Of a stretch of 64,000 nt of DNA, positions 41,217 to 54,775 are shown piece after piece. A program made the translations under genes and the position numbers. The stretch's first letter is position 1, and every line of letters starts with the position of its first letter. The stretch comes from Halpernia frigidisoli. GTDB taxonomy: Bacteria > Bacteroidota > Bacteroidia > Flavobacteriales > Weeksellaceae. The DNA is taken from contig NZ_FOQT01000001.1 in the NCBI RefSeq assembly GCF_900113805.1, forward strand, positions 722,411-786,410. The letters run 5' to 3'. The notes beneath the pieces were generated by a model. That model was given only the letters and a program-made list of their open reading frames with translations, had not been told where the DNA came from and did no database searches.

Positions 41217-43712
41217 TTATTTAATTGTTTTATAACTCTCAACCAATCTTATAAATTCTGAACGATAACCATCTTCATCTTTTGACAAACCTTCTTTTGC
41301 TAAATCTTCAATTTCATTTAAATTTTTGTCTTTAATAAATTTTGAATCCCGAAGCACCAAACCAAACCAACTTACCGCACTTGCGAATTTAAAATCCGGC
41401 GAAGTTTGATTAAAATTTTCAGATTTATTTTTTACAATTTGCTGGATTTCCACACTTTTATCTTCGTCCGGTTTTTTATAACGCAATTTTATGGTTGCCA
41501 ATTCATCACCAAAATTTTGAGTATTTTCATTGGTTTTGGAGTATTTTAAAGGAATTTCTTTCACGTCAAAATCAGAATCAACACCAACAGGAATGATCTC
41601 ATATAAAGCCGTCACAGTGTGTCCACTTCCCAATTCACCCGCGTCTTTTTTGTCATTTGTGAAATCTTCGTTTTGCAATTTTCTATTTTCATAACCAATT
41701 AAGCGGTAAGATTTCACATATTTTGGGTTAAATTCAATCTGGATTTTGACATCTTTGGCAATTGCGTAAAGATTTCCGGCAAATTCTTTTCCTAAAAATT
41801 TATTGGCTTCCTGCATATTATCGATGTAGGCATAATTTCCGTTTCCTTTGTCAGCAAGAGTTTCCAAAGTATTGTCTTTATAATTTCCCATTCCAAAACC
41901 AAGGCAAGTGAGGAAAACGCCCGATTTTCTTTTTTCTTCGATTAAAGTTCCAAGATCTGTAGTTGAAGAACTTCCGACATTAAAATCACCGTCTGTTGCG
42001 ATTATCACACGATTATTTCCATTTTTAATGAAATGTTCCTGTGCTAATTTATACGCCAATTCAATCCCAGCGCCACCTGCAGTACTTCCGCCGGCTTGTA
42101 AATTATCCAAAGAAGCAATAATTTTTTCTTTATTTTTTACCAAAGTCGGCTCTAAAACCATTCCTGCATTTCCCGCGTAAACTACAATTCCAACTTTATC
42201 TTCAGGTTTTAATTTGTCTAACAACACTTTAAAAGAAGATTTTAAAAGTGGTAATTTATTTGGCTCACTCATCGATCCGGAAACATCAATTAAAAAAACG
42301 ATATTAGAATTTGGTAATTTTTCCAACGGAATATTTTTTCCCTGTAATCCAATTTTTAATAATTTATGTTTTGTGTTCCACGCCGCATCGCTGTATTCCG
42401 AATTTACGCTAAACGGTTTATTATCGGTCGGTTGCAGATAAGAATATTTAAAATAATTTAGCATTTCTTCAATTCTCACGGCGTTTTTATCCACTTTTTC
42501 ACCGTTATTTATCATCCTTCTGATGTTGGAATAAGCGGCATTATCAACATCAATCGAAAATGTGGATAGCGGTTCGTTTTTCGCAGATTCAAAAGGATTT
42601 TCAATAAATGCGTCGTAACCTTCATTGTCAGTTTCAGCATTTCCTCTTATGTTAATTGAATCTTTTTTGTCCAATTCATCTGACATCTTTTGTAGTTCTT
42701 TCTTTTCTTTTTTGCTTAAATTTTTAGTTTTTATTAGAATTACACCTTCTCTACCTCTATTTCCATACATTGAGGTTGCGGAAGCATCTTTTAAAACTGT
42801 CAATTCTTTTATATTATTTGGATTTAAAATATCTAAACTTTTTGAATTATAAACAACGCCATCAACAACTATTAAAGGTGAATTTGCAGGATTGTAATTT
42901 GGATTTCCAATGATAATACCCTTAGTTTTAATCGTATTATTTTGAATTTGAGGATTTTTATTTTTTTCTTTTCTTGATTTTGTACTAGTTCTATATCCTG
43001 TAACCACGACTTCATCAATAGATTTCTGTGAATTATTTAAAGTTGACATTCCTCTGATTACAATTGTCGGGCTGTTGCCAGGATTTCCACTTGATGGTGA
43101 AATTTGTACACCTGCAACTTTTCCCTGTAAAGTATTTTCTGTGTAAACCAAATAATTTTTAATTTCCGGTGAAACACTTTGTATGGAACCTGCTAAATAT
43201 TCTCTTTTTTGAGTTCCATAACCGAGAAGAACAACATCTTCAATATTTTTTTCTTTTAACGAATCTCTTTTATTTTTTATTAGAGGAATTAGATTATCAA
43301 TATTTTTCACGATTACCAGACTTTTCTTACCAGTCGGAATTTGTAAAGCAATTACTTTTGTTTTTTCTACAGCTTTTTCCTTCGCAATATTAGATTTTAT
43401 AGTTTCATCTATTTTCCGGATTTCAGGATTTGAAATTGGTATTTGAGTCGGTAAATCTTTGTTAATTGCAATTTGTGGTTTTACAATTTCAGTGGAATTT
43501 TTCGAATTAAAATAAAAAATTCCCGATCCAATTAATAAACTTGCCGCAATTCCATACGGAAACCAAACAGGAAGAATTCGTTTTTCATCTTTTTTGTCTA
43601 ATTTTTCTTCTACCCGATTCCAGATATTTTCAAATTCCGGCATTTTCATTTTTTCATCGGAAGAATCGCTTGCTTCCTTGAATTTTTCGTCTATATTTTG
43701 ATTATTTTCCAT
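41217..43712 (-). CDS. anti-sigma-like membrane protein combining two plug/carboxypeptidase-regulatory-like modules, a vWA domain and DUF3520
   Basis: An N-terminal cytoplasmic segment and one TM helix (VWFPYGIAASLLIGSGIFYF) are followed by two GYGTQ/VVTGY plug-like stretches, a vWA MIDAS motif (DVSGSMS...TDGD) and a C-terminal DUF3520-like region. It lies immediately downstream of the ECF sigma gene. Confidence 0.65.
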   Translation of the reverse strand: MENNQNIDEKFKEASDSSDEKMKMPEFENIWNRVEEKLDKKDEKRILPVWFPYGIAASLLIGSGIFYFNSKNSTEIVKPQIAINKDLPTQIPISNPEIRKIDETIKSNIAKEKAVEKTKVIALQIPTGKKSLVIVKNIDNLIPLIKNKRDSLKEKNIEDVVLLGYGTQKREYLAGSIQSVSPEIKNYLVYTENTLQGKVAGVQISPSSGNPGNSPTIVIRGMSTLNNSQKSIDEVVVTGYRTSTKSRKEKNKNPQIQNNTIKTKGIIIGNPNYNPANSPLIVVDGVVYNSKSLDILNPNNIKELTVLKDASATSMYGNRGREGVILIKTKNLSKKEKKELQKMSDELDKKDSINIRGNAETDNEGYDAFIENPFESAKNEPLSTFSIDVDNAAYSNIRRMINNGEKVDKNAVRIEEMLNYFKYSYLQPTDNKPFSVNSEYSDAAWNTKHKLLKIGLQGKNIPLEKLPNSNIVFLIDVSGSMSEPNKLPLLKSSFKVLLDKLKPEDKVGIVVYAGNAGMVLEPTLVKNKEKIIASLDNLQAGGSTAGGAGIELAYKLAQEHFIKNGNNRVIIATDGDFNVGSSSTTDLGTLIEEKRKSGVFLTCLGFGMGNYKDNTLETLADKGNGNYAYIDNMQEANKFLGKEFAGNLYAIAKDVKIQIEFNPKYVKSYRLIGYENRKLQNEDFTNDKKDAGELGSGHTVTALYEIIPVGVDSDFDVKEIPLKYSKTNENTQNFGDELATIKLRYKKPDEDKSVEIQQIVKNKSENFNQTSPDFKFASAVSWFGLVLRDSKFIKDKNLNEIEDLAKEGLSKDEDGYRSEFIRLVESYKTIK

Positions 43713-43723
43713 TTTTTCTTTTT

Positions 43724-44245
43724 TTAAAAATTTTGTTGATGAAGCATTAACTGCAATTTTTTACGGGCAAAATTAACCTGAGATTTAGACGTTCCTTCAG
43801 TTATAGAAAGCATCTGTGCAATTTCTTTGTGTGGATAACCTTCAATCGCGAAAAGATTGAAAATGGTTTTGCAGCCTTCTGGTAAGAAATTCAGAAGTTT
43901 GAGAATGTCTTTTTCCAAAGAAAAAATTGGACTTTCAACTGAAGAAATTTCCGCTGCGTTTTCATCATCTAAAGAATAATGGAACTGCTCTTTCTTGCGT
44001 AATTTTTGCAGACATTCATTAACAGTGATCTTTCTCGCCCAGGCTTCAAAAGTTTCCGGATCATTTACCTGATCGATTTTTGTGAAGATCTTGTAAAAAG
44101 TATCCGTCAAAACTTCTTCAATATCTTCCTGATTTTTCAGATACCGTTTACAAACCGAATTCAGTTGGTGCGCCATTGCTTCGTAAATCTGCCGTTGCGC
44201 ATTTCGGCTTTTACGTTTGCAGTCAATTATTAATTGATGATCCAT
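43724..44245 (-). CDS. RNA polymerase ECF-type sigma-70 factor
   Basis: Region 2 (FYKIFTKI, ETFEAWARKITVNECL) and region 4 HTH (IAQMLSITEGTSKSQVNFARKKL) are present. Confidence 0.8.
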   Translation of the reverse strand: MDHQLIIDCKRKSRNAQRQIYEAMAHQLNSVCKRYLKNQEDIEEVLTDTFYKIFTKIDQVNDPETFEAWARKITVNECLQKLRKKEQFHYSLDDENAAEISSVESPIFSLEKDILKLLNFLPEGCKTIFNLFAIEGYPHKEIAQMLSITEGTSKSQVNFARKKLQLMLHQQNF

Positions 44246-44582: not shown

Positions 44583-44661
44583 AATTGCAACGGCTTCAGA
44601 TACTATTCAGATTTTCATTTGTGTTTTTTCGGACCAAGAAATTCTCTGAAGCCTTGCAATT
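44583..44661. repeat. long inverted repeat (17/18-bp arms with about a 44-nt loop)
   Basis: AATTGCAACGGCTTCAGA pairs with TCTGAAGCCTTGCAATT. It lies in a 530-bp intergenic region. Confidence 0.5.
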
Positions 44662-44777: not shown

Positions 44778-45449
44778 TCAAATGAAACCAACATCCTTAC
44801 AGATTGCGATCAGATGCTCGTTACTTTTAGCCTCAAACGTTTCTTTAAGCTGACTAAAAGCCTTTTCTACAGAACTTAAACTGTTGGGTTTCAAATTTTT
44901 TTCTTTTAATAAATCCGGAATATTTTTTTGTAAAACACCTTCAGAAAGTAATCTCAAAAGTGTGTATTCTAAAATGGTAAGTTCTACCGCATCTTTTCTC
45001 CGAAGGTTTAGAACATTATCATGTGAGAGATGATTTATGTCTTTATAGATAGATGAAATTGCTTTTTTAAGTTCCTTTACATCCATTCTACCTTTGCTCA
45101 CAAAACCATTTATTTTCAACTCATCGAATAGAACTTTGATGTGAGCAGGTCTTTTTTCCGACGAAAAAACAAGAATTTTCAGATCCGGTAAGATTTTTCT
45201 GACTTCCGAAATTAATTCCGCTCCAGATTTTATTTTTTGTTCTTTATGATCAGGCTCAAATGAAAGATCAGTTATAAGCAAATCATAAACAACATTATCG
45301 TCAATACTTTTATTTAAAAGGTTAATGGCATCATCGCAATAATTGACAAAGATTGTGTTTTCTTCTTTTATTTTAAGATCTTTCAACACTTTTTGCACAG
45401 AAATACTGGCACTTTCAAAATCTTCAACAGACAATATTTTCTTAAACAT
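44778..45449 (-). CDS. response regulator, REC + LuxR-type HTH
   Basis: A receiver domain with the acceptor Asp (LLITDLSF) is followed by a C-terminal HTH. Its stop abuts the upstream kinase start. Confidence 0.7.
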   Translation of the reverse strand: MFKKILSVEDFESASISVQKVLKDLKIKEENTIFVNYCDDAINLLNKSIDDNVVYDLLITDLSFEPDHKEQKIKSGAELISEVRKILPDLKILVFSSEKRPAHIKVLFDELKINGFVSKGRMDVKELKKAISSIYKDINHLSHDNVLNLRRKDAVELTILEYTLLRLLSEGVLQKNIPDLLKEKNLKPNSLSSVEKAFSQLKETFEAKSNEHLIAICKDVGFI

Positions 45450-47207
45450 TTAGTCACTTTTAATAGGAAAGGAAATATTTATTTTGGTTCCCTTTCCCGT
45501 TGTTTCGTCAAAAGTAAGTTTTCCTTCGCAGGAAAAAATACGGGTTTCCGTATTTTGTAAACCATTTTTTTTCTGAATGATTTCGCCCAAACCTTTACCA
45601 TCGTCAAAATAAGCGATTTCAAGTCTTTCCTTGTTGATTTCAAATTTTAAAATTAATTTTTTTGCTTCGCTGTGTTTTTTCATATTCACCAAAAGTTCCT
45701 GCAAAATAATTAAAAATTCAGTTTTTATTTTAGACGAAATTTTGTCCCATAAATCTTCTTCATTGCCGATTATTATTGGCTTTATCAAATCCGAAGAAAA
45801 AGATTTTACCAAATTTGAAATTTGTATTTTGTAAGTATTCACAGTATTTTCCAAAAGGTTTTCGTAAGAAATATCTCTCGATTTTTCATAAATTTTTTCC
45901 AATTTATTTAAAACTTCCGGCTTATCTATGTTGGGGTTATTTTCAATTTCAGACATCACTTGATAAACACCGTTAGAAACTACATCATGTATTTTTTTAG
46001 AATATTTAAGTTCTGTATTTTTTATTTTTAATTGATTTTCCTGATGAACAAGTTCTTTTTCCTGCTTTACTCTTTCTTGTCTTTTTTTCAACCATATAAT
46101 ACCGATAATTGTTGCCAGGAAAGCCAATCCCAAAGCAACATTTCTCACAAGTAATTGATAATTTTTTTCTGTATTTTCTGCTTGAGATTTCAATAAATCT
46201 GCACGGTTTTTTTCTGATTCATATCGCACCAAAGCAAATTGATTTTTTGCTTTATTTCTTGCCGTTTGGAGGCTGTCCTTCAGTTTTAGATAGATATTGA
46301 AATATTTTTTAGAATCTGCCGTATTTTCTAAATTCACTAATTTTTGCAAAGCTTCTATCTCGTCATCTGGACTTTTCAACTGGCTTGCAATGTTGTACAT
46401 TTTATGTGCGTGAAAAAGCGATTTTACGGGATTTTTATATGCAAAATAATCTGATAAATGGGCTTGACTTGCATTTTGTCCCCATAAATCTTTTTCTGCT
46501 TCACGAATTTCTAATGCTTTATTGAGTTGTGGTTCTGCATTATAATTTTTGTTTTGAAGAAATTTCGTGAAAGCGAGATTGTCTAATATTTTGAATTTAA
46601 ATCTTTGATTTTGATTAACGATTTTATCAATAAACAATTCATCAAAAACTTTAATAGATTTTTTATAATCGCCTAATTTTGAATAAGCTACAGCAATATT
46701 GTTAGATCGTTTTGTTTTTTCTAATGAATCTGCAGAAAATTTAATTGCCTTATCGTAAAAATAAATGGCTTTTTTATAATTTTTTAGATTTTGAGTGGCA
46801 ATACCTAGGCAATTATAGTTTGCAGAAATAGTTTCAAAGTTCTCTTCATTATTTTCATTGAAATATTTAATTGATGAAAGAGAAGTTTCCTGACTGCCAA
46901 AATAATCCCCTTTATCGGCAAGAATGATTGCCATATTAATTAAACACTTTCCTACCTTTAGAGAATCTTTCTGATTTATAAATATATCTTTAGCAGCATT
47001 AAAGTAAACAAAAGCACTATCCTGTTGTTTCTTTTCCAAAAAAATAAATGCTTTATCATAGTTTTTGTTGATATTAGTTTTTGGTAAGTTTTGGCTCGTC
47101 TTTTCACAAGAAAATAAAATTATAAGAAACAGGAAAATGTAATATTTTTTCAAATTAAGAGATTGTATTCCAAATATATTAAAAAAATGCGGAAGTGACT
47201 TCCGCAT
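45450..47207 (-). CDS. TPR-repeat sensor histidine kinase (HisKA_3 + HATPase_c)
   Basis: A lipoprotein-type signal peptide (LFLIILFSC) is followed by extracytoplasmic TPR repeats, a TM helix (VALGLAFLATIIGIIWL), the H-box and an ATPase domain with G-box motifs. The start is doubtful, and a TTG at 47153 is a possible alternative. Confidence 0.75.
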   Translation of the reverse strand: MRKSLPHFFNIFGIQSLNLKKYYIFLFLIILFSCEKTSQNLPKTNINKNYDKAFIFLEKKQQDSAFVYFNAAKDIFINQKDSLKVGKCLINMAIILADKGDYFGSQETSLSSIKYFNENNEENFETISANYNCLGIATQNLKNYKKAIYFYDKAIKFSADSLEKTKRSNNIAVAYSKLGDYKKSIKVFDELFIDKIVNQNQRFKFKILDNLAFTKFLQNKNYNAEPQLNKALEIREAEKDLWGQNASQAHLSDYFAYKNPVKSLFHAHKMYNIASQLKSPDDEIEALQKLVNLENTADSKKYFNIYLKLKDSLQTARNKAKNQFALVRYESEKNRADLLKSQAENTEKNYQLLVRNVALGLAFLATIIGIIWLKKRQERVKQEKELVHQENQLKIKNTELKYSKKIHDVVSNGVYQVMSEIENNPNIDKPEVLNKLEKIYEKSRDISYENLLENTVNTYKIQISNLVKSFSSDLIKPIIIGNEEDLWDKISSKIKTEFLIILQELLVNMKKHSEAKKLILKFEINKERLEIAYFDDGKGLGEIIQKKNGLQNTETRIFSCEGKLTFDETTGKGTKINISFPIKSD

Positions 47208-47685: not shown

Positions 47686-50124
47686 TTAGTAAATCTTCGG
47701 AAATTTATCGGGATTTGCTTCGTTAAAAACGTTATAAACAGTTTCAACCATATCATCAACGGAAGGTTTACTGAAATAATCGCCATCTGTGCCATAAGCC
47801 GGACGATGGTTTTTTGCGGTTAAAGTAACCGGTTCAGAATCCAGATATTTAAAGGCTTTTTGCACTTCCAAAACCTGCTGTAAAATAAAAGCGGATGCTC
47901 CACCTTCAACATCTTCATCAATTATTACTAAACGATTTGTTTTTTGCAAACTTTTTTTAATATTATGTTCCAAATCAAAAGGAATTAACGATTGAACATC
48001 AATAACTTCCGCGGAAATCTCTAATTTTTCTAATTGTTCTGCAGCGTCCATAACTAACCTCCACGTTGATCCGTAAGAAATAAGCGTGACGTCTTTTCCT
48101 TCTTTGGTTATTTCAATTTTACCGACTGGGACCATAAATTCCCCAATATTATCTGGTTGTTTTTCTTTTAATCTGTAACCGTTTAAAGGTTCGATGATTA
48201 TACAAGGCTCATCACTTTGCAACATCGTGTTGTAAAAACCAGCAGCTTTTGTTAGATTTCTCGGTGTCAAAACCAAAATTCCTTTACAAAGATTTAAAAT
48301 TCCTGCCATTGGAGAACCGGAATGCCAAATTCCTTCTAATCGATGTCCACGAGTCCTTATAATTACCGGCGCTTTTTGTCCGCCTCTTGTTCTGTACTGA
48401 ACTGTTGCCAAATCATCGCTCATTCCCTGCAAACAATATAAAACGTAATCTAAATATTGGATCTCTGCAATTGGTCTTAAACCTCGCATTGCCAAACCAA
48501 TTCCTTGTCCTAAAATTGTTGCTTCGCGAATACCCGTATCTGCAATTCTTAAACTGCCATATTTTTCCTGTAAACCTTCTAAACCTTGATTTACATCACC
48601 GATATTTCCTGCATCTTCACCAAAAACCAAAGCTTCAGGATATTTTTCGAAGATTTTGTCAAAATTATTTCGCACAACAACTCTACCGTCAACGATTTCT
48701 GAATTTTCGGAAAAAGAGGGAGATATTTCTTCAATATTAGTTGCTTTCCATTGCGATTGTGAATACAAATGTGATGAATAATTTTCTTTCTCTTGTTTAA
48801 AGATCTGCGAATATTTTTCTAAAAGAATATTTCTGTTTTCACTTTTTGAGTTTCTTGTCAAAAGTAAAGATTGGCGCAAAAGATGAAAAATATCTTTTTT
48901 TGATTTTCCCACTTTCTTATCAAAAATATCAAGAATTTGGGCAACTTCATTCTCACTTTCATTCAATTTTTTAACCAAAGGAAGAATCTCATTTTGCAAA
49001 TCGCTTATAGATTTTTGATAATTTTCCCAGGCTATTTTTTGACCTGCTTTTACATATTTTTTTGCTTCATCTTCAATTGCATTTAATTCTTCAGCATTTG
49101 CTAAAAAAACTTCCTTTTCATCTATTTCAATAGAATAATTGAGGATCCATTCTTTAAATTTATTTAAACAGTCAAACTCCTGTTCCCAACTTAATCGTTG
49201 TTCATTTTTATATCGTTCATGTGATCCTGAAGTTGAATGACCTTGAGGTTGAGTCACTTCAATAACATGCACTAAAACCGGAACTGATTCTGTACGAGCA
49301 AAATGTTCAGCTTTTGCATAAGCTTCTAAAAGTTGCGGATAGTCCCAAGCATTGACCTGAATAATTTCACAGCCTTGTTGTTCACCCTCTTTTCTTTGAT
49401 AGCCGGAAAGCATTTCAGAAATATCTGCTTTACCTCTTTGTTCTGACGTTGGGACAGAAATTCCGTAACCGTCGTCCCAGATTGAAATTATCATTGGGAC
49501 CTGTAATGCACAGGCTGCATTTAAAGTTTCAAAAAAAAGTCCTTCCGCTGTGGAAGCATCTCCGATTGTTCCAAAAGCAACCTCTTGTCCGTTGTTGGAA
49601 AATTTTTCAGAACCATCAAATCTTACTTCTTTATATACTTTCGAAGCCAAAGCTAAACCTAAAAGTCGTGGCATTTGTCCGGCAGTCGGTGAAATATCAG
49701 CAGAACTGTTTTTTTGCTCCATTAAATTTTTCCAGCTTCCGTCTTCGTTCAGACTTCTCGTTCCATAATGACCGTTCATCTGTCTTCCCGCAGACGCTGG
49801 CTCTCTTAAAATACTGGTATCTGCGTAAAGCTGTGCAAAAAAACTTTCAATAGAAACTGCATCAATTGCTAAGGAAAAAGTTTGATCACGGTAATATCCT
49901 GAGCGGAAATCTCCATTTTTGAAAACTTTCGACATTGCTAACTGTGGTAATTCTTTTCCGTCACCAAAAATGCCAAACTTAGCTTTACCTGTAAGAACTT
50001 CTCTTCTACCTAAATAAGACATTTCGCGGGAAATCCTACCTAACTTATAATCATCTAAAATGTTTTTTTTAAATTCCTGAAAAGATAATTGCTGAGTTTC
50101 TATAAAGGTGTTTTGCATAAACAA
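47686..50124 (-). CDS. fused alpha/beta E1 component of a 2-oxoacid dehydrogenase (TPP-dependent)
   Basis: The N-terminal half has the E1-alpha TPP-binding motif (GDASTAEGLFFETLN). The C-terminal half is a transketolase-like E1-beta. A single 812-aa ORF of this kind is typical of Bacteroidetes. Confidence 0.8.
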   Translation of the reverse strand: MFMQNTFIETQQLSFQEFKKNILDDYKLGRISREMSYLGRREVLTGKAKFGIFGDGKELPQLAMSKVFKNGDFRSGYYRDQTFSLAIDAVSIESFFAQLYADTSILREPASAGRQMNGHYGTRSLNEDGSWKNLMEQKNSSADISPTAGQMPRLLGLALASKVYKEVRFDGSEKFSNNGQEVAFGTIGDASTAEGLFFETLNAACALQVPMIISIWDDGYGISVPTSEQRGKADISEMLSGYQRKEGEQQGCEIIQVNAWDYPQLLEAYAKAEHFARTESVPVLVHVIEVTQPQGHSTSGSHERYKNEQRLSWEQEFDCLNKFKEWILNYSIEIDEKEVFLANAEELNAIEDEAKKYVKAGQKIAWENYQKSISDLQNEILPLVKKLNESENEVAQILDIFDKKVGKSKKDIFHLLRQSLLLTRNSKSENRNILLEKYSQIFKQEKENYSSHLYSQSQWKATNIEEISPSFSENSEIVDGRVVVRNNFDKIFEKYPEALVFGEDAGNIGDVNQGLEGLQEKYGSLRIADTGIREATILGQGIGLAMRGLRPIAEIQYLDYVLYCLQGMSDDLATVQYRTRGGQKAPVIIRTRGHRLEGIWHSGSPMAGILNLCKGILVLTPRNLTKAAGFYNTMLQSDEPCIIIEPLNGYRLKEKQPDNIGEFMVPVGKIEITKEGKDVTLISYGSTWRLVMDAAEQLEKLEISAEVIDVQSLIPFDLEHNIKKSLQKTNRLVIIDEDVEGGASAFILQQVLEVQKAFKYLDSEPVTLTAKNHRPAYGTDGDYFSKPSVDDMVETVYNVFNEANPDKFPKIY

Positions 50125-50247
50125 GTGATTTTTACAAATATAATTAATTAGGAAATAATACTAAAATATAAATTTTAATAGATATTTATATTTTGAAATT
50201 TTTATAAACGCTCAAAAACCCGGTAATTTGTAGTAATATTTTTAAAA

Positions 50248-50544
50248 ATGAAAGAAAAATCTCCACATATATTGAATGCATCTTCTAATCTATTAGGATT
50301 TTGCTTATTGATAATTACTTCTTTGAAAATAACTAATTCTGATAAAGCAACTTTTTTGGACGAATTTGCAGGAGTTGCAGGGATTTTTTTCACAATAAGC
50401 TGTATTTTTTCTTTTCTGGCAATACGAACGAATAATCACAAACAAATACTGGTATTTGAATCTATTGCGGATTATCTGTTTTTGGGCGCTTTGGTTTGTA
50501 TTTTTTTTGCCGTCGGAATGTTATTTTTAAAACTTTTTCCTTAA
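50248..50544 (+). CDS. hypothetical membrane protein
   Basis: It has three hydrophobic helices. It converges on the small-peptide gene array. Confidence 0.4.
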   Translation: MKEKSPHILNASSNLLGFCLLIITSLKITNSDKATFLDEFAGVAGIFFTISCIFSFLAIRTNNHKQILVFESIADYLFLGALVCIFFAVGMLFLKLFP

Positions 50545-50550
50545 AAAAAA

Positions 50551-50608
50551 CCTCCTTTGCGTTCAGCAAAGGAGATCAACACAAATGATGAAAAAAAATT
50601 TATTGTTT
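50551..50608 (+). repeat. composite repeat, copy A (variant hairpin + conserved core)
   Basis: Hairpin CTCCTTTGC-GTTCA-GCAAAGGAG is followed by ATCAACACAAATGATGAAAAAAAATTTATTGTTT. Confidence 0.7.
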
Positions 50609-50650
50609 AGGGGGTTAATGTATTATATAAAATCATTACTTGTGATAAAA

Positions 50651-50714
50651 AACCTCTCCAGTAATTGTTGACTGGAGAGATCAACACAAATGATGAAAAA
50701 AAATTTATTGTTTG
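50651..50714 (+). repeat. composite repeat, copy B
   Basis: Hairpin CCTCTCCAGTAATTGTTGACTGGAGAG is followed by ATCAACACAAATGATGAAAAAAAATTTATTGTTT. Confidence 0.75.
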
Positions 50715-50757
50715 AGATATTACTTCAATTTACTCTTTTCAAAATTTGTGAAAAAAA

Positions 50758-50818
50758 ATCTCTCCAGTGATTTGTTGACTGGAGAGATCAACACAAATGA
50801 TGAAAAAAAATATTGTTA
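50758..50818 (+). repeat. composite repeat, copy C (abuts the stop of peptide gene 1)
   Basis: Hairpin TCTCTCCAGTGATTTGTTGACTGGAGAG is followed by ATCAACACAAATGATGAAAAAAAATATTGTTAAT. On the minus strand it forms a hairpin plus T-run, that is, an intrinsic terminator. Confidence 0.75.
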
Positions 50819-51010
50819 ATCCCGCGGAGGTGTTATTGCATCTCCTAAAGAGTTGTCTGTATGATCAAATTTTACATAATTAGAATCTTTACTAATTTGT
50901 TTTTTCTCTAATTTATTTTTTGCAGCTTTTAAACTATTTCCCTGCTCTTCACGAAAAGAAACTAATGTTAATGATGCTACTGCTATACTTAGGTAAATAA
51001 ACTTTTTCAT
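50816..51010 (-). CDS. small secreted peptide, paralog 1 (signal peptide + conserved C-terminal ...YVKFDHTDNSLGDAITPPRD)
   Basis: The 64-aa product starts MKKFIYLSIAVASLTLVS. The track ORF is trimmed to this Met at 51010. There are three paralogs in tandem. Confidence 0.6.
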   Translation of the reverse strand: MKKFIYLSIAVASLTLVSFREEQGNSLKAAKNKLEKKQISKDSNYVKFDHTDNSLGDAITPPRD

Positions 51011-51073
51011 AATAATTTTTATAAAGGTTTCTAAAATATAATTCTGAGTATTTTTCACATTCGCTTTAAAAAA

Positions 51074-51133
51074 CCTCTCCAGCTATTGTTGACTGGAGAG
51101 ATCAACACAAATGATGAAAAAAAATATTATTAA
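51074..51133 (+). repeat. composite repeat, copy D (abuts the stop of peptide gene 2)
   Basis: Hairpin CCTCTCCAGCTATTGTTGACTGGAGAG is followed by ATCAACACAAATGATGAAAAAAAATATTATTAAT. Confidence 0.75.
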
Positions 51134-51324
51134 TCTCTCGGCGGCGTTGTTGGATTGCCTAAAGAGTTATCTGTATGATCGAATTTAACGTAATTTGTAA
51201 TCGTGCTTGTTTTGTTCTCTTGCGGACTAATAGTTACAGGTTTCAAACTATTTCCTTCCTGCTCACGAAATGATACTAAACTTAGAGATGCTATGCCGAT
51301 ACTTAGGTAAATAAACTTTTTCAT
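51130..51324 (-). CDS. small secreted peptide, paralog 2 (...NYVKFDHTDNSLGNPTTPPRD)
   Basis: The 64-aa product starts MKKFIYLSIGIASLSLVS, and the C-terminal 20 aa are nearly identical to paralog 1. Confidence 0.6.
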   Translation of the reverse strand: MKKFIYLSIGIASLSLVSFREQEGNSLKPVTISPQENKTSTITNYVKFDHTDNSLGNPTTPPRD

Positions 51325-51390
51325 AATAATGATTTTATAATGATTTTTAAACTTAAAATTTTTAGTATTTTCTTTTGTGTTTTAAAAAAA

Positions 51391-51451
51391 CCTCTCCAGT
51401 AATTGTTGACTGGAGAGATCAACACAAATGATGAAAAAAATTTTATTGTTT
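51391..51451 (+). repeat. composite repeat, copy E
   Basis: Hairpin CCTCTCCAGTAATTGTTGACTGGAGAG is followed by ATCAACACAAATGATGAAAAAAATTTTATTGTTT. The following GGGGTTAAT spacer resembles the one after copy A. Confidence 0.75.
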
Positions 51452-51496
51452 AAGGGGTTAATTTTATTTTGTAAATGTCATAATTTGTTAAAAAAA

Positions 51497-51553
51497 TCTC
51501 TCCAGTGATTTGTTGACTGGAGAGATCAACACAAATGATGAAAAAAAATGCTT
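51497..51553 (+). repeat. composite repeat, copy F (abuts the stop of peptide gene 3)
   Basis: Hairpin TCTCTCCAGTGATTTGTTGACTGGAGAG is followed by ATCAACACAAATGATGAAAAAAAATG. Confidence 0.75.
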
Positions 51554-51565
51554 TATTACTGCGAA

Positions 51566-51784
51566 TTAATCTTGTGGTGGTCTTGCAGGATCACCATCTC
51601 TTGCAGTTGAATTGAAATTACTATATTCAGTGGAATTATTTATTGAATTTGAACCATCATTAAATAATTTTTTTTCTGTTCCAGGATTTTGACCGTTAAT
51701 TGCTTGTGTTAATTCATCTTGTTCTCTACAAGATACTAATGATAAAGAAAAAAGTGCGATGCTTAGGTAGATAATTTTTTTCAT
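51566..51784 (-). CDS. small secreted peptide, paralog 3 (lipoprotein-type signal LSLVSC; C-terminus ...DGDPARPPQD)
   Basis: The 72-aa product starts MKKIIYLSIALFSLSLVSC. The track ORF's Asn-rich upstream extension is rejected. Confidence 0.55.
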   Translation of the reverse strand: MKKIIYLSIALFSLSLVSCREQDELTQAINGQNPGTEKKLFNDGSNSINNSTEYSNFNSTARDGDPARPPQD

Positions 51785-51798
51785 AATTTTTGGATTTA

Positions 51799-51900
51799 AA
51801 TTTGTGTTGTTAAAAGATAATGTTGTGTTGTTGTTGTTAACTGAATTTGTGTTGTTGTTAAAATTTTTTTCTTCCATCATAAAAATGTTTGTGTTATTTG
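51799..51900. promoter_or_regulatory. divergent promoter region with direct repeats of the GTGTTG (CAACAC) motif
   Basis: ATTTGTGTTGTT at 51799, TGTTGTGTTGTTGTTGTT at 51821, ATTTGTGTTGTTGTT at 51846 and TGTTTGTGTTATT at 51887 all carry the motif, and AAAACACAAATGTT at 52053 sits just upstream of the regulator start. Confidence 0.45.
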
Positions 51901-52089
51901 ATGAGCCAAAACTATAAACTTTTACTGCTACCACCAAATATTTAAAATGCTATAGGTCTATTATCATAAATTCTGACTCTTAAAACATAAAAAATTAATA
52001 GTAATTTCAAAAAAAAAACGTTAATTTTGCAAATGAAGATCGTAAAAACATGAAAACACAAATGTTAACAAATTGATTATTAGCATTTT

Positions 52090-53817
52090 ATGATAAAGAC
52101 TAAAATATTATTTTTTGTATTAATATTTTTTAACATTTTTTTAAGTATTTCTGCTCAAAAAAGCAAACCAACTGATTTAACTTATAAGCAAATTGAAGAA
52201 AAAATAGATTTACTACATAAAGATTCCACAAAAATGTGGAAGATGATTAATCTATACATTCAAAAATCAAAGCAAGAGAGAAATTTTGAAACTTTAATTT
52301 ACGCTTATAGATATTCTACCTTATATTCTACGTTTCCTAGAAATATTGCTTTCGCAGATAGCGCTCTTTCAATTGCAAAGAAAAGTAATAATCCTGAATT
52401 CCTAAGCAGTGCTTATGTCAACAGAGGAAAAACCTGGCTAGATGAAAAAAAATACCAAAAATCTTTGGATGATTTTCTTTCCGCTATTACATACTCAAAT
52501 AAAACAGGTGATGACTATACTACTTACAAGACTAAATATTACATTGCGCAAAATAAAATTTATTTAGGATTATACGATGAAGCTCAGGAAGAGCTTAGAC
52601 AATGTATTGAATATTTTAAAAAAAATATCAAAACAACTGGTCTTGGAAAAGACAATGAGATGTATTATTTGTACTCATTAATGAGTTCTATAGATACTAA
52701 TTCAAAATTATTAAAACAGAAAGAAAATAAACCACTTTTAGATGAAGCGTTTGATTACATAACTGTAAATAATCTTTCCGAGTATCTTCCCTATTTTATT
52801 ACATCTCAAGGCGTTGATTCTTATAATAATAAAAACTATAATTTAGCCATATTAAAATTGAAACAGGCTCTATCTTTATTTAAGGATAACAGTTTTCATT
52901 ATACAGCTAATTTCTATCTTGGAATGTCTTATTGGCAAGAAGGAAGAAAGGACGAAGCAGTTCTATACTTTAAATTGATTGACGCTGATTATTCAAAAAG
53001 CGGAAAACTTGATCCTCATTTTAGACCAACGTACGAATATCTCATTAAATATTTTCAAAATTCTGGCAATAAAACCTTGCAACTTCAATATGTGAAAAAA
53101 CTAATGGAGCTTGACAGAAATTACGAGAAAAACTTTAAATATCTTTACACAACCATTAATAAAGAATATGATACTAAAAAGCTGCAACAGGAAAAAGATC
53201 GATTAGAAAGTTCTCTTCAAAGACAGCGAGTATTCTATTTCATTCTTATAATGCTCATTATTAGTGCAGCGGGATTTTTAATTTACAGATTTCTTAAGCT
53301 CCAAAGAAAATATCGGGAACAGTTTGAGAATATAATTCATGCGGATGAAACTAAGGATAGCATTACCTATCAGTTACAAACAGTCCAAAGTCCTAAAAAT
53401 TCTGAAACAGAAGAAATTTATTATGATAATATTCCAGGTATTAATCCGCAAATTGTTGAACAAATTGTAAAAGAGCTGGAAAAATTTGAAAGAGAAAAGC
53501 GTTATTTAGATCCTCAGATTTCCCAGAAATCATTAAGTGAAGATTTTGGTACAAATTCCAGTTATCTTTCCAAAATTATCAATACTTATAAAGATAAAAA
53601 TTTCAATCATTATGTAAATGATCTGCGAATTGATCACACCTTAAATCTTCTTAAAACAAAAAGGAAGTATTTAAATAAAGACGTTAAAGAACTCGCAACG
53701 ATTTCCGGATTTAACAGCACAGACAGTTTTAGTAAGAATTTCCAGAGAAAATTTGATATGAAACCAAGTCAGTTTATCAAAATGATGAAAGAAGAAGCTA
53801 GAATTTCCGCTCAATAA
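52090..53817 (+). CDS. membrane-anchored one-component regulator with a signal peptide, a predicted extracytoplasmic TPR domain, one TM helix and an AraC-type HTH
   Basis: It has a cleavable signal peptide (FLSISAQ) and TPR-like repeats over about aa 30-360. A TM helix (VFYFILIMLIISAAGFLIY) follows. The C-terminus is an HTH_AraC domain (GFNSTDSFSKNFQRKFDMKPSQF). Confidence 0.7.
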   Translation: MIKTKILFFVLIFFNIFLSISAQKSKPTDLTYKQIEEKIDLLHKDSTKMWKMINLYIQKSKQERNFETLIYAYRYSTLYSTFPRNIAFADSALSIAKKSNNPEFLSSAYVNRGKTWLDEKKYQKSLDDFLSAITYSNKTGDDYTTYKTKYYIAQNKIYLGLYDEAQEELRQCIEYFKKNIKTTGLGKDNEMYYLYSLMSSIDTNSKLLKQKENKPLLDEAFDYITVNNLSEYLPYFITSQGVDSYNNKNYNLAILKLKQALSLFKDNSFHYTANFYLGMSYWQEGRKDEAVLYFKLIDADYSKSGKLDPHFRPTYEYLIKYFQNSGNKTLQLQYVKKLMELDRNYEKNFKYLYTTINKEYDTKKLQQEKDRLESSLQRQRVFYFILIMLIISAAGFLIYRFLKLQRKYREQFENIIHADETKDSITYQLQTVQSPKNSETEEIYYDNIPGINPQIVEQIVKELEKFEREKRYLDPQISQKSLSEDFGTNSSYLSKIINTYKDKNFNHYVNDLRIDHTLNLLKTKRKYLNKDVKELATISGFNSTDSFSKNFQRKFDMKPSQFIKMMKEEARISAQ

Positions 53818-54775
53818 CGTAATCAAGCATTAAATGCAAAGATGTTTTTGCTTCAGAATCTGGAAAATCAGTTAAAATTAACTTTGCTTCTTCGTAATAA
53901 TTATTCATCACCGAAAGTGCATAGTCTAATCCACCTGTAAACTTAACAAAATCAATAAGTTCTTTTACTCTTTTTTTATTGTCTTTGTATTTTTTTACGG
54001 TTTCAAAGTGGTATTTTCTGTCTTTCGCATTAGCATTTTTGAGACTGTAAATTAAAGGCAGAGTCATTTTTTGTTCCTGAATGTCAATTCCAACTGGTTT
54101 TCCGATCGCATTTGCACTAAGATAATCAAAAAGATCATCCTTTATTTGAAAAGCCATTCCTGTTTTCGTTCCAAAAATTTGCATTTTTTTTGCTAAATCT
54201 TCATCAGCATTATTAGAAAGAACGCCGATTTCACAACAAGCGGCAATTAGCGTTGCAGTTTTTTGGCGAATAATTTCGTAATACACATCTTCCGTAATAT
54301 CTAAAGTTCTGGCTTTTTCCAATTGTAAAAGCTCACCTTCAGACATTTCTCTGATTGTACGGGCGATAACGTGCAGTAAATCATAATCTTTATTATCTGT
54401 AGAAAGTAAAACTGATTTGGAAAGAAGAAAATCACCAACTAAAACCGCAATTTTGTTTTTCCAAAGTGCGTTAATTGAGAAAAAATTTCTTCTTTTAAAA
54501 CTTTCATCAACAACATCATCGTGAACCAAAGTTGCTGTATGAATCAATTCAATCATAGACGCACCGCGAAAAGTTTTTTCATTCACTTCGCCAACTAATT
54601 TTGCACATAAAAAAACAAACATTGGTCGCATTTGCTTTCCTTTTGTGGTCACAATAAAACGTGTCACTTTATCTAAAAGTGGCACTTTCGTATGCATAGA
54701 TTCATAAAACTTTTGTTCGAAAAGTTTCATCTCTTCTAAAATTGGTTTTTTGATCTCGTTAACGGTTGTTGACAC
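53798..54775 (-). CDS. polyprenyl diphosphate synthase (IspB-like)
   Basis: First (VHDDVVD) and second (KDDLFD) Asp-rich motifs are present. Confidence 0.8.
   Translation of the reverse strand: MSTTVNEIKKPILEEMKLFEQKFYESMHTKVPLLDKVTRFIVTTKGKQMRPMFVFLCAKLVGEVNEKTFRGASMIELIHTATLVHDDVVDESFKRRNFFSINALWKNKIAVLVGDFLLSKSVLLSTDNKDYDLLHVIARTIREMSEGELLQLEKARTLDITEDVYYEIIRQKTATLIAACCEIGVLSNNADEDLAKKMQIFGTKTGMAFQIKDDLFDYLSANAIGKPVGIDIQEQKMTLPLIYSLKNANAKDRKYHFETVKKYKDNKKRVKELIDFVKFTGGLDYALSVMNNYYEEAKLILTDFPDSEAKTSLHLMLDYVIERKF

Follow-up and report, generated by a model that had tools for sequence, protein, structure and literature searches.

What relationship holds between three very short tandem genes for secreted peptides and the membrane-bound regulator that is encoded divergently from them? 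We address this question for a locus in a 64-kb stretch of Halpernia frigidisoli DNA (hereafter the window), which consists of three peptide genes (pep1, pep2 and pep3), an array of short RNA elements, and the divergent gene of a regulator in which tetratricopeptide (TPR) repeats are combined with an AraC-type helix-turn-helix (HTH) domain (Table 1). A first-pass annotation of the window had read the peptides as exported signalling peptides, and the regulator as their direct receptor in a quorum- or stress-peptide circuit. We found that the pairing is conserved across genera, that the ancestral partner of the regulator appears to be a lipid-anchored protein, and that each peptide gene ends in a conserved RNA element with a covarying hairpin. 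Our preferred and still tentative interpretation, to which we assign a probability of about 0.42, is an envelope-signalling module composed of a TPR-AraC one-component regulator, a tethered and disordered lipoprotein that may be its ligand, its co-sensor or at least its principal target, and a small RNA (sRNA) carried on the same mRNA.

Conservation of the regulator and its lipoprotein partner

We identified a divergent homologous gene for a small protein of 60-90 aa at all 18 distinct orthologous regulator loci with upstream DNA (the window, L002, L003, L005, L009, L013, L015-L017, L018-L022, L024, L026, L028 and L029; L004, L006-L008 and L027 duplicate other loci and were not counted). These loci span at least four genera (Halpernia, Kaistella, Chryseobacterium and Cloacibacterium) plus metagenomes, the non-Halpernia loci coming from three complete genomes, eight metagenome loci that keep upstream DNA and two further Chryseobacterium genomes. 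The order in every non-Halpernia locus examined was the regulator, a divergent gene for a 62-85-aa lipoprotein, the RNA element, and a gene for a fused E1 alpha/beta 2-oxoacid dehydrogenase. In other genomes of Halpernia, and in related contigs from metagenomes, we found the regulator, a divergent peptide gene of the C type (with a lipobox Cys), one of the F type (with Phe in its place), and an array of three to six elements. The far flank varies by genus (polyprenyl synthase versus DUF2007/aminotransferase), indicating that the regulator-lipoprotein pair has survived rearrangement. The module is lineage-wide in the Chryseobacterium clade (Weeksellaceae), and its pairing in Halpernia is not special.

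The layout of the regulator agrees with the first-pass description, by hydrophobicity, Gln23, Pfam and an AlphaFold2 (AF2) model alike. It is predicted to comprise a signal peptide for signal peptidase I (residues 1-22), an invariant Gln23, a periplasmic superhelix of ~8 TPR repeats (32-341), a transmembrane (TM) helix (~380-404), a disordered linker (415-444) and a cytoplasmic AraC-type HTH (453-574). Exactly two hydrophobic segments are present (1-25 and 379-404), the second followed by the positively charged QRKYR, and Gln23, right after the first segment, is invariant in 13 regulator orthologues and fits the 'Q-rule' of Bacteroidetes signal peptidase I (PMC5837995, PMC10653852). Since the TPR domain lies between this cleavable signal peptide and the single TM helix, it is predicted to be periplasmic, and the HTH to be cytoplasmic. 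The AF2 model (pLDDT 83) shows an all-helical TPR superhelix at 32-341, a long membrane-crossing helix at 350-415, and helices at 453-574 corresponding to the HTH. Pfam matches to HTH_18 (E 8.4e-12, 45.7 bits, cut-off 33.6) and HTH_AraC (30.2 bits, cut-off 26.6) at residues 482-564 identify the C-terminal double HTH of the AraC/XylS family, and TPR_2 matches exceed their cut-off, the TPR assignments being to generic families only.

Full-length orthologues of ~50% identity were identified in Cloacibacterium, Chryseobacterium, Kaistella and Epilithonimonas, and in their alignment the TPR domain is a long, strongly conserved superhelix with many invariant residues. Foldseek placed LGN/Pins first, and these closest solved structures hold extended peptides in their groove; designed CTPR proteins and OGT also ranked above NprR (rank 25, 14% identity, E 3.5e-5). 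The analogy drawn by the first-pass annotation to the RNPP receptors of Firmicutes thus holds for the architecture, and fails for homology, as the structural matches are those of generic TPR repeats and there is no sequence homology. We detected no homology between the regulator TPR domain and that of a TPR-containing histidine kinase (TPR-HK) encoded nearby (BLASTP E 0.55). In Cloacibacterium sp. TD35, three tandem TPR-AraC paralogues of 595, 550 and 565 aa (L015 5001-10802, plus strand) lie beside one C-type and one 'LSF'-type gene, constituting an expansion of the regulator instead of the peptide or RNA.

The three tandem minus-strand peptide genes were found at the coordinates first assigned to them, and their alignment reproduces the near-identical signal peptides, variable middle regions and conserved C-termini (..PPRD or ..PPQD) previously noted, with a lipobox position that reads LVSC in pep3 versus LVSF in pep1 and pep2. 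Ratios of non-synonymous to synonymous substitution (dN/dS, Nei-Gojobori) were 0.12-0.52 in 13 of 14 orthologue or paralogue pairs, including 0.28-0.32 for pep3 and 0.12 for pep2 against pep1, and in the fourteenth pair the synonymous sites were saturated. The peptide open reading frames (ORFs) are therefore coding and under purifying selection, in keeping with the earlier proposal, and homologues turn up in other genomes and metagenomes. The NCBI annotation extends pep3 to 104 aa with an Asn-rich N-terminus, which we consider unlikely, as such a stretch would lie ahead of the signal peptide and is missing from L003, L009 and L013; with no extension in the relatives, the start at MKKIIYLS is the more likely one. 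The pep3 leader (51785-51937, minus strand) carries an (AACAAC)n-like low-complexity insertion that would code for Asn. Regarding features of ribosomally synthesised and post-translationally modified peptides, no modification enzymes, transporters or dedicated exporter adjoin the peptide genes (the neighbours are a polyprenyl synthase, the E1 dehydrogenase and a 98-aa membrane protein), as had been reported.

A profile search for the lipoprotein returned 194 clusters at E<1e-3, and just 87 representatives (50% identity) among 1.84 billion proteins, all of 50-140 aa and all labelled 'hypothetical'. Searches of Pfam and NCBIfam gave nothing above cut-off for the peptides, and a match to PG1828-lipoprotein spans the signal peptide alone. 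A lipobox Cys of the form [x][x][S/G/A]-C is present in 120 of the 120 family members listed (114 recognised by regular expression, the other six by eye), at least 115 of which also have a PP-containing tail. Directly after the Cys, family members carry the motif C-R-Q-x-(D/E)-(D/E)-hydrophobic, often with S-P-E-E/D-x-x-x-L-x-V-Q, and they terminate in (V)DGE/DP-x-PPP-(K/R)-K. The middle is variable and of low complexity, conservation being confined to the two ends of a mature protein of ~45-70 aa for which AF2 models no structure past the signal peptide. Such end-only conservation in a disordered lipoprotein is a pattern typical of linear motifs, and would count in favour of the tail being read by a partner. 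The lipobox of bacterial lipoproteins, the substrates of signal peptidase II, is present in pep3 (LVS-C) and absent from pep1 and pep2, which have Phe. Because the lipobox Cys is family-wide, pep3 appears to represent the ancestral partner type, and pep1 and pep2 lineage-specific Cys-to-Phe derivatives. An 'LSF' paralogue similar to the Halpernia F-type is also present in Cloacibacterium (L015 4081-4302 and L021 2418-2639), and in each of these secondary paralogues the Cys-to-Phe replacement corresponds to a single G-to-T change. The Phe-type paralogues break the Q-rule, as they have a residue other than Gln behind the putative cleavage site.

Halpernia forms a divergent branch of the family, with tails that end acidic (..PPQD, ..PPRD, ..PPKE). 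Its C-termini read ..RDGDPARPPQD and ..NSLGDAITPPRD, and an orthologous tail reads ..VDGEIVPPPRK, the terminal motif having changed in this lineage from the basic ..PPP(K/R)K to the acidic ..PP(Q/R/K)(D/E). At regulator residues 295-296, within the TPR domain, we found E/D followed by E/T/Q/N in 106 of 106 non-Halpernia orthologues, and K followed by L/F/S in nine of nine Halpernia-group proteins. The coincidence of the two charge swaps hints at a direct contact between the TPR domain and the tail. The Halpernia-specific positive charges of the TPR domain comprise K114, K295 and K336 (E295-E296 elsewhere).

A conserved RNA element at the peptide gene 3' ends

We identified six copies of a ~60-nt element on the minus strand between 50544 and 51549, three at the 3' ends of the peptide genes and three without an ORF, which the first-pass annotation had overlooked. 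The 16-mer core of the element occurs six times at the locus, compared to 0.17 copies expected by chance, and nowhere else in the window, and a covariance model recovered the same six copies and no others. The element consists of U8-CAUCAUUUGUGUUGAU, a 12-bp GC-rich hairpin and a U-run, each peptide gene ending in an invariant 22 nt (U8-CAUCAUUUGUGUU) that precedes a covarying terminator hairpin. All 18 regulator loci are accompanied by the element, with one to six copies in the loci examined and a degenerate version in L019 only (covariance model E~1e-3). The 22-nt 5' part is invariant or near-invariant in 39 of the 40 copies that model R1 matched among the loci searched, the exception being L019, and in Cloacibacterium CAUCAUUUG reads CAUCGUUUG.

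The stems of the hairpin are, by comparison, wholly different between lineages (CUCUCCAGU, CUCUCCUGU, CUCCUUUAC, CUCUUCCGU, GGUUCUUCCGCG and UCUCCUUUCGCUGC), and every copy has a folding energy of -12 to -23 kcal/mol. In an alignment of 18 sequences, 93% of hairpin cells are paired versus at most 59% in slid controls, nine of the 12 pairs have changed on both sides, and 43 cells are compensatory versus 13.2 +/- 3.6 in shuffles. The stem type of the last Halpernia copy (T0) is common to the last unit of other Halpernia loci and to a stand-alone copy in Chryseobacterium sp. MP_3.2. The element is the most conserved part of the locus, the peptide coding sequence being just ~25-35% identical across genera, and it is non-coding, since its frame relative to the stop codons varies. 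A search of positions 49000-54000 with Rfam 15 (cmscan, E<=1) returned only chance matches to miRNA and U7 families, far under their gathering scores.

The ORF-less units of Halpernia retain the string AUUAACCCC(C/U)(U/A)AAAC(A/C)AAUAAA just 5' of the U-run, with the ancestral stop codon followed by CCCCUUAAAC..AAUAA. The matching string in Kaistella and Chryseobacterium is the lipoprotein stop codon and the start of the 3' untranslated region (3'UTR; AAG UAA CCCCUUAAACUAAAUAA U8 CAUCAU..), indicating that the ORF-less units are copies of the gene 3' end alone. Copies of this kind arose in Halpernia and also in Cloacibacterium (L021, L026). The stand-alone element of Chryseobacterium sp. MP_3.2 (L010 5765-5880, minus strand) is flanked by an XRE-like gene and a LytTR regulator. 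It contains no ORF, comes with a 5' hairpin and a perfect TTTG-N17-TACATTTG promoter, and folds with z = -5.15; the same genome also has a normal regulator-lipoprotein-element module (L028).

The element presents a conserved single-stranded stretch directly 5' of an intrinsic terminator, the arrangement that characterises CpxQ-type RNAs. The 22-mer is invariant and single-stranded, the terminator is free to vary, amplification is independent of the ORF, and one separate copy is promoter-driven, which together suggest the signature of a base-pairing, 3'-end-derived sRNA, a type reviewed in PMC9438474, and not of a mere terminator. We consider the element to be a putative sRNA of this type, whose accumulation we infer. 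The complement of its seed, AACACAAAUGAUGAAAAAAAA, looks like the A-rich translation-initiation region of a Bacteroidota exported protein beginning 'MKK..'. A scan for seed targets across the window gave nothing conserved or clearly over background, and candidate sites within the locus (the regulator 5'UTR site AAACACAAATG at 52055, two CAACACAAAT in the pep3 leader, and the peptide and E1 starts) were dropped, as they are not conserved in L009, L013, L017 and L028. We additionally noted two copies of CAACACAAAU in the pep3 leader that are complementary to 10 nt of the seed and not conserved in other species, and an intergenic 11-nt match to the seed complement (AACACAAAUGA, 44615-44635, minus strand) between response-regulator and ECF-sigma-like genes, which does not sit at an obvious start codon and is probably due to chance.

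We considered and rejected several other identities for the element. Antisense plus-strand ORFs (MMKKN..), which might be coding or type-I toxins, are unconserved past five residues, shift frame with the length of the A-run, and reach only 8-12 aa in L016, L015 and L003. The element is not a read-through or extended part of the peptide ORFs, as it occurs in all three frames relative to the stop codons, nor a dispersed repeat of MITE or REP type, as the copies found with the 16-mer and the covariance model are confined to the locus within the window. A 21-mer scan of the genomes of 185,579 species returned only Halpernia, one Chryseobacterium copy, and three chance matches (in Vibrio, in Spirochaetota, and in a coding region of a Bacteroidota metagenome-assembled genome). 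A bidirectional terminator is ruled out by the lack of a U-run after the hairpin on the opposite strand, and a Fur-box or palindrome reading of ATCA..TGAT by the fact that TGAT is unconserved outside Halpernia.

Upstream of the C-type gene, a sigma-ABfr promoter (TTTG-N~20-TAnnTTTG, the consensus cited in PMC7366714) was found in 13 of 14 loci inspected, L015 having TACATTTT. Loci of all genera have T-rich boxes at about -50/-60 and -100 that are equivalent to those between the regulator and pep3, and are candidate AraC operator sites.

A proposed tethered ligand and its competing explanations

In the module that we favour, the lipoprotein would be a tethered linear-motif ligand or co-sensor, with its C-terminal tail bound by the TPR domain. 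The regulator would read the amount, location or processing of the lipoprotein in the envelope, in a logic resembling that of CpxP/CpxA, NlpE and RcsF, and would control the shared divergent promoter region. The lipoprotein transcript would release, or terminate as, an sRNA, the seed of which (U8-CAUCAUUUGUGUU), complementary to the A-rich initiation region AACACAAAUGAUGAAAAAAAA, may act in trans as does CpxQ from cpxP. Halpernia has amplified the unit: beside a single lipoprotein gene it carries at least one Cys-to-Phe paralogue, predicted to be non-lipidated, and additional 3' ends without an ORF, which would raise the RNA dosage. Binding, regulation, RNA accumulation and RNA targets are the steps of this scheme that we infer. 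A fuller circuit, in which a disordered 'sentinel' lipoprotein shows its polyproline tail to the TPR-AraC regulator, the sRNA of the same mRNA (seed complement ..AAAUGAUGAAAAAAAA) damps the translation of exported 'MKK..' proteins, and the RNA module evolves apart from the ORF, through tandem amplification of the 3' end, is in our view unlikely, at about one chance in four.

Several observations weigh against the favoured module. The charges co-varied only once in evolution, and residue 295, which belongs to a TPR B-helix, is not obviously groove-lining. The surface-exposed lipoproteins of Bacteroidota carry a lipoprotein export signal (LES), C-X-K-(D/E)2-X or Q-A-(D/E)2 at +2 to +5/+6, the position of which is reported to be critical (PMC5080379), and the family motif has a polar or basic residue and two acidic ones, but offset by one position (e.g., CRQADDV in Kaistella). 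Localisation of the lipoprotein to the cell surface is thus possible, in which case it would lie outside the outer membrane, away from the periplasmic TPR domain, unless sensed in transit. No conserved sRNA target was found at the locus, the duplex energies at the regulator, peptide and E1 starts being within ~2 SD of background. Canonical promoters were not found for the F-type genes or the ORF-less units, which are therefore probably expressed via read-through or from weak promoters. Finally, the E1 dehydrogenase neighbour is common to all loci, so that inherited synteny within a single family could explain part of the linkage.

The most serious rival to this module, although we regard it as rather unlikely, is that the TPR domain senses another periplasmic cue, and that the lipoprotein gene and its 3' RNA are simply the main members of the regulon, as spy and cpxP are for Cpx, without any binding of the tail. 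The conserved upstream boxes in a divergent arrangement and the strong canonical promoter of the C-type gene would be expected of such an output, and Bacteroidota possess periplasmic TPR sensors for which no ligand is known, such as FimS (PMC11053733), with a TPR-HK encoded in the window itself. This explanation nevertheless leaves both the end-only conservation of a disordered lipoprotein, including the terminal PPP(K/R)K motif, and the coincident charge swap of the TPR domain unaccounted for. Far less probable is that the lipoprotein and regulator are functionally unrelated neighbours held together by inherited synteny, with the element an efficient terminator duplicated along with the peptide genes; we would give this the lowest standing of the explanations considered. 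All loci do come from one family and have the E1 dehydrogenase neighbour in common, and a hairpin followed by a U-run is a textbook intrinsic terminator, but a terminator has no need of the conserved upstream 22-mer, which remained invariant across genera despite coding sequences of ~25-35% identity and fully replaced stems. The existence of ORF-less copies and of a promoter-driven stand-alone copy, and the retention of the pair beside a rearranged other flank, argue further against it.

The diffusible quorum or stress peptides of the first-pass annotation would entail that the C-terminal part is freed by proteolysis, re-enters the periplasm via porins, and is bound by the TPR domain in an inside-out counterpart of an RNPP circuit. 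We find this improbable. The conserved signal peptide and C-terminus around a variable middle are indeed as in precursors of the Phr, PapR and NprX type, NprR is among the structural matches to the TPR domain, and a free signal is least improbable for the F-type paralogues of Halpernia and Cloacibacterium, which lack the Cys for a lipid anchor. The universal partner, however, is a lipoprotein, the residues after its Cys are as conserved as the tail, which points to a tethered protein, and no protease or exporter is linked to the genes. The tails are near-uniform across genera (PPPRK/PPPKK), with little pherotype-like specificity, and the NprR match reflects generic TPR similarity. With an ancestral partner that would be lipid-anchored and not a free peptide, a diffusible signal is not the simplest reading of these sequences and appears less likely than a tethered one.

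Relation to known systems, neighbouring genes and significance

The closest analogy in logic appears to be cpxP/CpxQ with CpxRA of Enterobacteria, without homology of parts. In both cases a small extracytoplasmic partner is encoded divergently from an envelope regulator (in Cpx, of envelope stress), and the cpxP mRNA yields the 3'-end-derived sRNA CpxQ, which has a conserved seed and the mRNA's own terminator (PMC4817254; reviewed in PMC9438474). Unlike the one-component TM AraC protein found here, Cpx is a two-component system, and CpxP is folded and soluble whereas the lipoprotein is disordered. CpxQ depends on Hfq and RNase E, and Bacteroidota are without Hfq; there is no sequence similarity, and tandem ORF-less copies are no feature of Cpx. 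RcsF and NlpE are small sentinel lipoproteins of the outer membrane, and a signalling protein in the inner membrane monitors where they are or how they are trafficked. In contrast to the partner described here, they have folded domains, and they signal to IgaA/Rcs or CpxA.

ToxR-ToxS, VtrA-VtrC and CadC similarly combine an inner-membrane-tethered transcription factor that has a periplasmic sensor with a small adjacent envelope partner (bioRxiv 10.1101/2022.04.08.487670). They differ in having an N-terminal cytoplasmic winged helix, a C-terminal periplasmic domain, and partners of lipocalin-like fold in the same operon, whereas the regulator described here runs in the opposite order, from signal peptide through TPR and TM to AraC, and has a disordered partner encoded divergently, unlike a co-component of that kind. 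The RNPP systems (Rap, NprR, PlcR and PrgX with Phr, NprX and PapR) resemble the module in having a TPR superhelix and an adjacent small exported peptide, the conserved C-terminal part of which is a possible ligand. Their receptors, which belong to Firmicutes, work in the cytoplasm, depend on import by Opp, and have either an XRE-type HTH at the N-terminus or a phosphatase. The regulator of the present module instead has a TPR domain that is predicted to lie in the periplasm and an AraC HTH at its C-terminus as output, and its partner would be lipid-anchored. We found neither a cytoplasmic TPR domain with a re-imported peptide nor homology to Rap, NprR, PlcR or PrgX, and no Opp genes adjoin the locus.

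FimS of P. gingivalis and the TPR-HK of the window share the succession of signal or TM segment, periplasmic TPR array, TM helix and cytoplasmic output (PMC11053733). Their output is a histidine kinase and not an AraC domain, and no partner lipoprotein has been described for them. Qrr1-5 and LhrC1-5 are multicopy or tandem sRNA families, with several near-identical copies, one seed, and a terminator for each copy. The copies found here differ in being chained head-to-tail behind peptide genes, mostly without recognisable promoters, and in having no Rfam match. UTR-derived sRNAs have been documented in Bacteroides (PMC7366714). The module thus combines two known kinds, a membrane one-component regulator with a partner and a 3'-derived sRNA, of which the parts themselves appear not to have been described before. 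We found no paper and no Pfam, NCBIfam or Rfam entry for the regulator subfamily, the lipoprotein family or the RNA element, and no description of such a system in the literature on TPR and AraC combinations in Chryseobacterium or Bacteroidetes, in agreement with the first-pass annotation, which had not recognised a described system.

Table 1. Positions within the window of the peptide genes, RNA element copies (T0 to T5), upstream signals and regulator.
Feature	Coordinates	Strand	Description
T0	50544-50599	-	ORF-less element, last in array; stem differs but is compensated (CUCCUUUGC/GCAAAGGAG); preceded by AUUAACCCCCUAAACAAUAAA
T1	50646-50704	-	ORF-less element
T2	50752-50811	-	Element at pep1 3' end
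pep1	50816-51010	-	64 aa from MKKFIYLS; F-type paralogue (LVSF); tail ..SLGDAITPPRD
T3	51067-51125	-	Element at pep2 3' end
pep2	51130-51324	-	64 aa; F-type paralogue, lipobox Cys replaced by Phe (LVSF); tail NYVKFDHTDNSLGNPTTPPRD
T4	51384-51442	-	ORF-less element; 5' spacer 51443-51489 retains AUUAACCCCUUAAACAAUAAAA, relic of ancestral gene 3' end
T5	51490-51549	-	Element at pep3 3' end; U8-CAUCAUUUGUGUU, hairpin GAUCUCUCCAGU/ACUGGAGAGAU, U-run; covariance model 78.8 bits
pep3	51566-51784	-	72 aa; C-type small lipoprotein; lipobox LVS-C, then C-R-E-Q-D-E, disordered body, tail GDPARPPQD
pep3 promoter	51907-51938	-	Canonical Bacteroidetes promoter; -33 TTTG at 51935-51938, 20-nt spacer, -7 TAGTTTTG at 51907-51914
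Conserved intergenic boxes	51961-52034	-	..TTTGCAAAATTAACG-T10.. and ..TTTATGATAA..; between regulator and pep3
Regulator	52090-53817	+	575 aa, membrane-bound one-component regulator; divergent from peptide genes

Downstream of the array lies the fused E1 alpha/beta 2-oxoacid dehydrogenase gene (47686-50124, minus strand, ~810 aa), which follows the lipoprotein and element in the same orientation in all related loci, and has its own TAnnTTTG promoter where inspected (L016-L019, L029). The end of the array is met by a convergent gene for a 98-aa hydrophobic protein (50248-50544, plus strand) without a family assignment, which is conserved in L020 as well as in Halpernia loci. Within 44778-47207 (minus strand) we identified the 585-aa TPR-HK (45450-47207), which has an N-terminal hydrophobic segment, a TPR array, a TM helix and a histidine-kinase output, and weak NCBIfam similarity to P. 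gingivalis FimS; its gene is followed by one for a 223-aa response-regulator-like protein. Another envelope-signalling pair is found at 41217-44245 (minus strand), where a gene for an extracytoplasmic function (ECF)-type sigma factor (173 aa) is followed by one for a protein of 831 aa in which an N-terminal TM segment is combined with a large extracytoplasmic region.

Flavobacteriia remain little explored with respect to signal transduction and post-transcriptional control; to our knowledge, very few sRNAs have been described outside Bacteroides, and none of the abundant periplasmic-TPR sensors of Bacteroidota has a known ligand. The compact system described here, present in at least four genera, genetically pairs such a sensor with a candidate ligand, a disordered lipoprotein of 50 aa that ends in a defined motif, and a point of contact between the TPR domain and the tail is suggested by the natural charge swap. 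Its candidate sRNA offers an unusually clear seed, natural variation in copy number, and a stand-alone version. If our interpretation is correct, Bacteroidota would have in this module their own version of the cpxP/CpxQ logic, assembled from unrelated parts.

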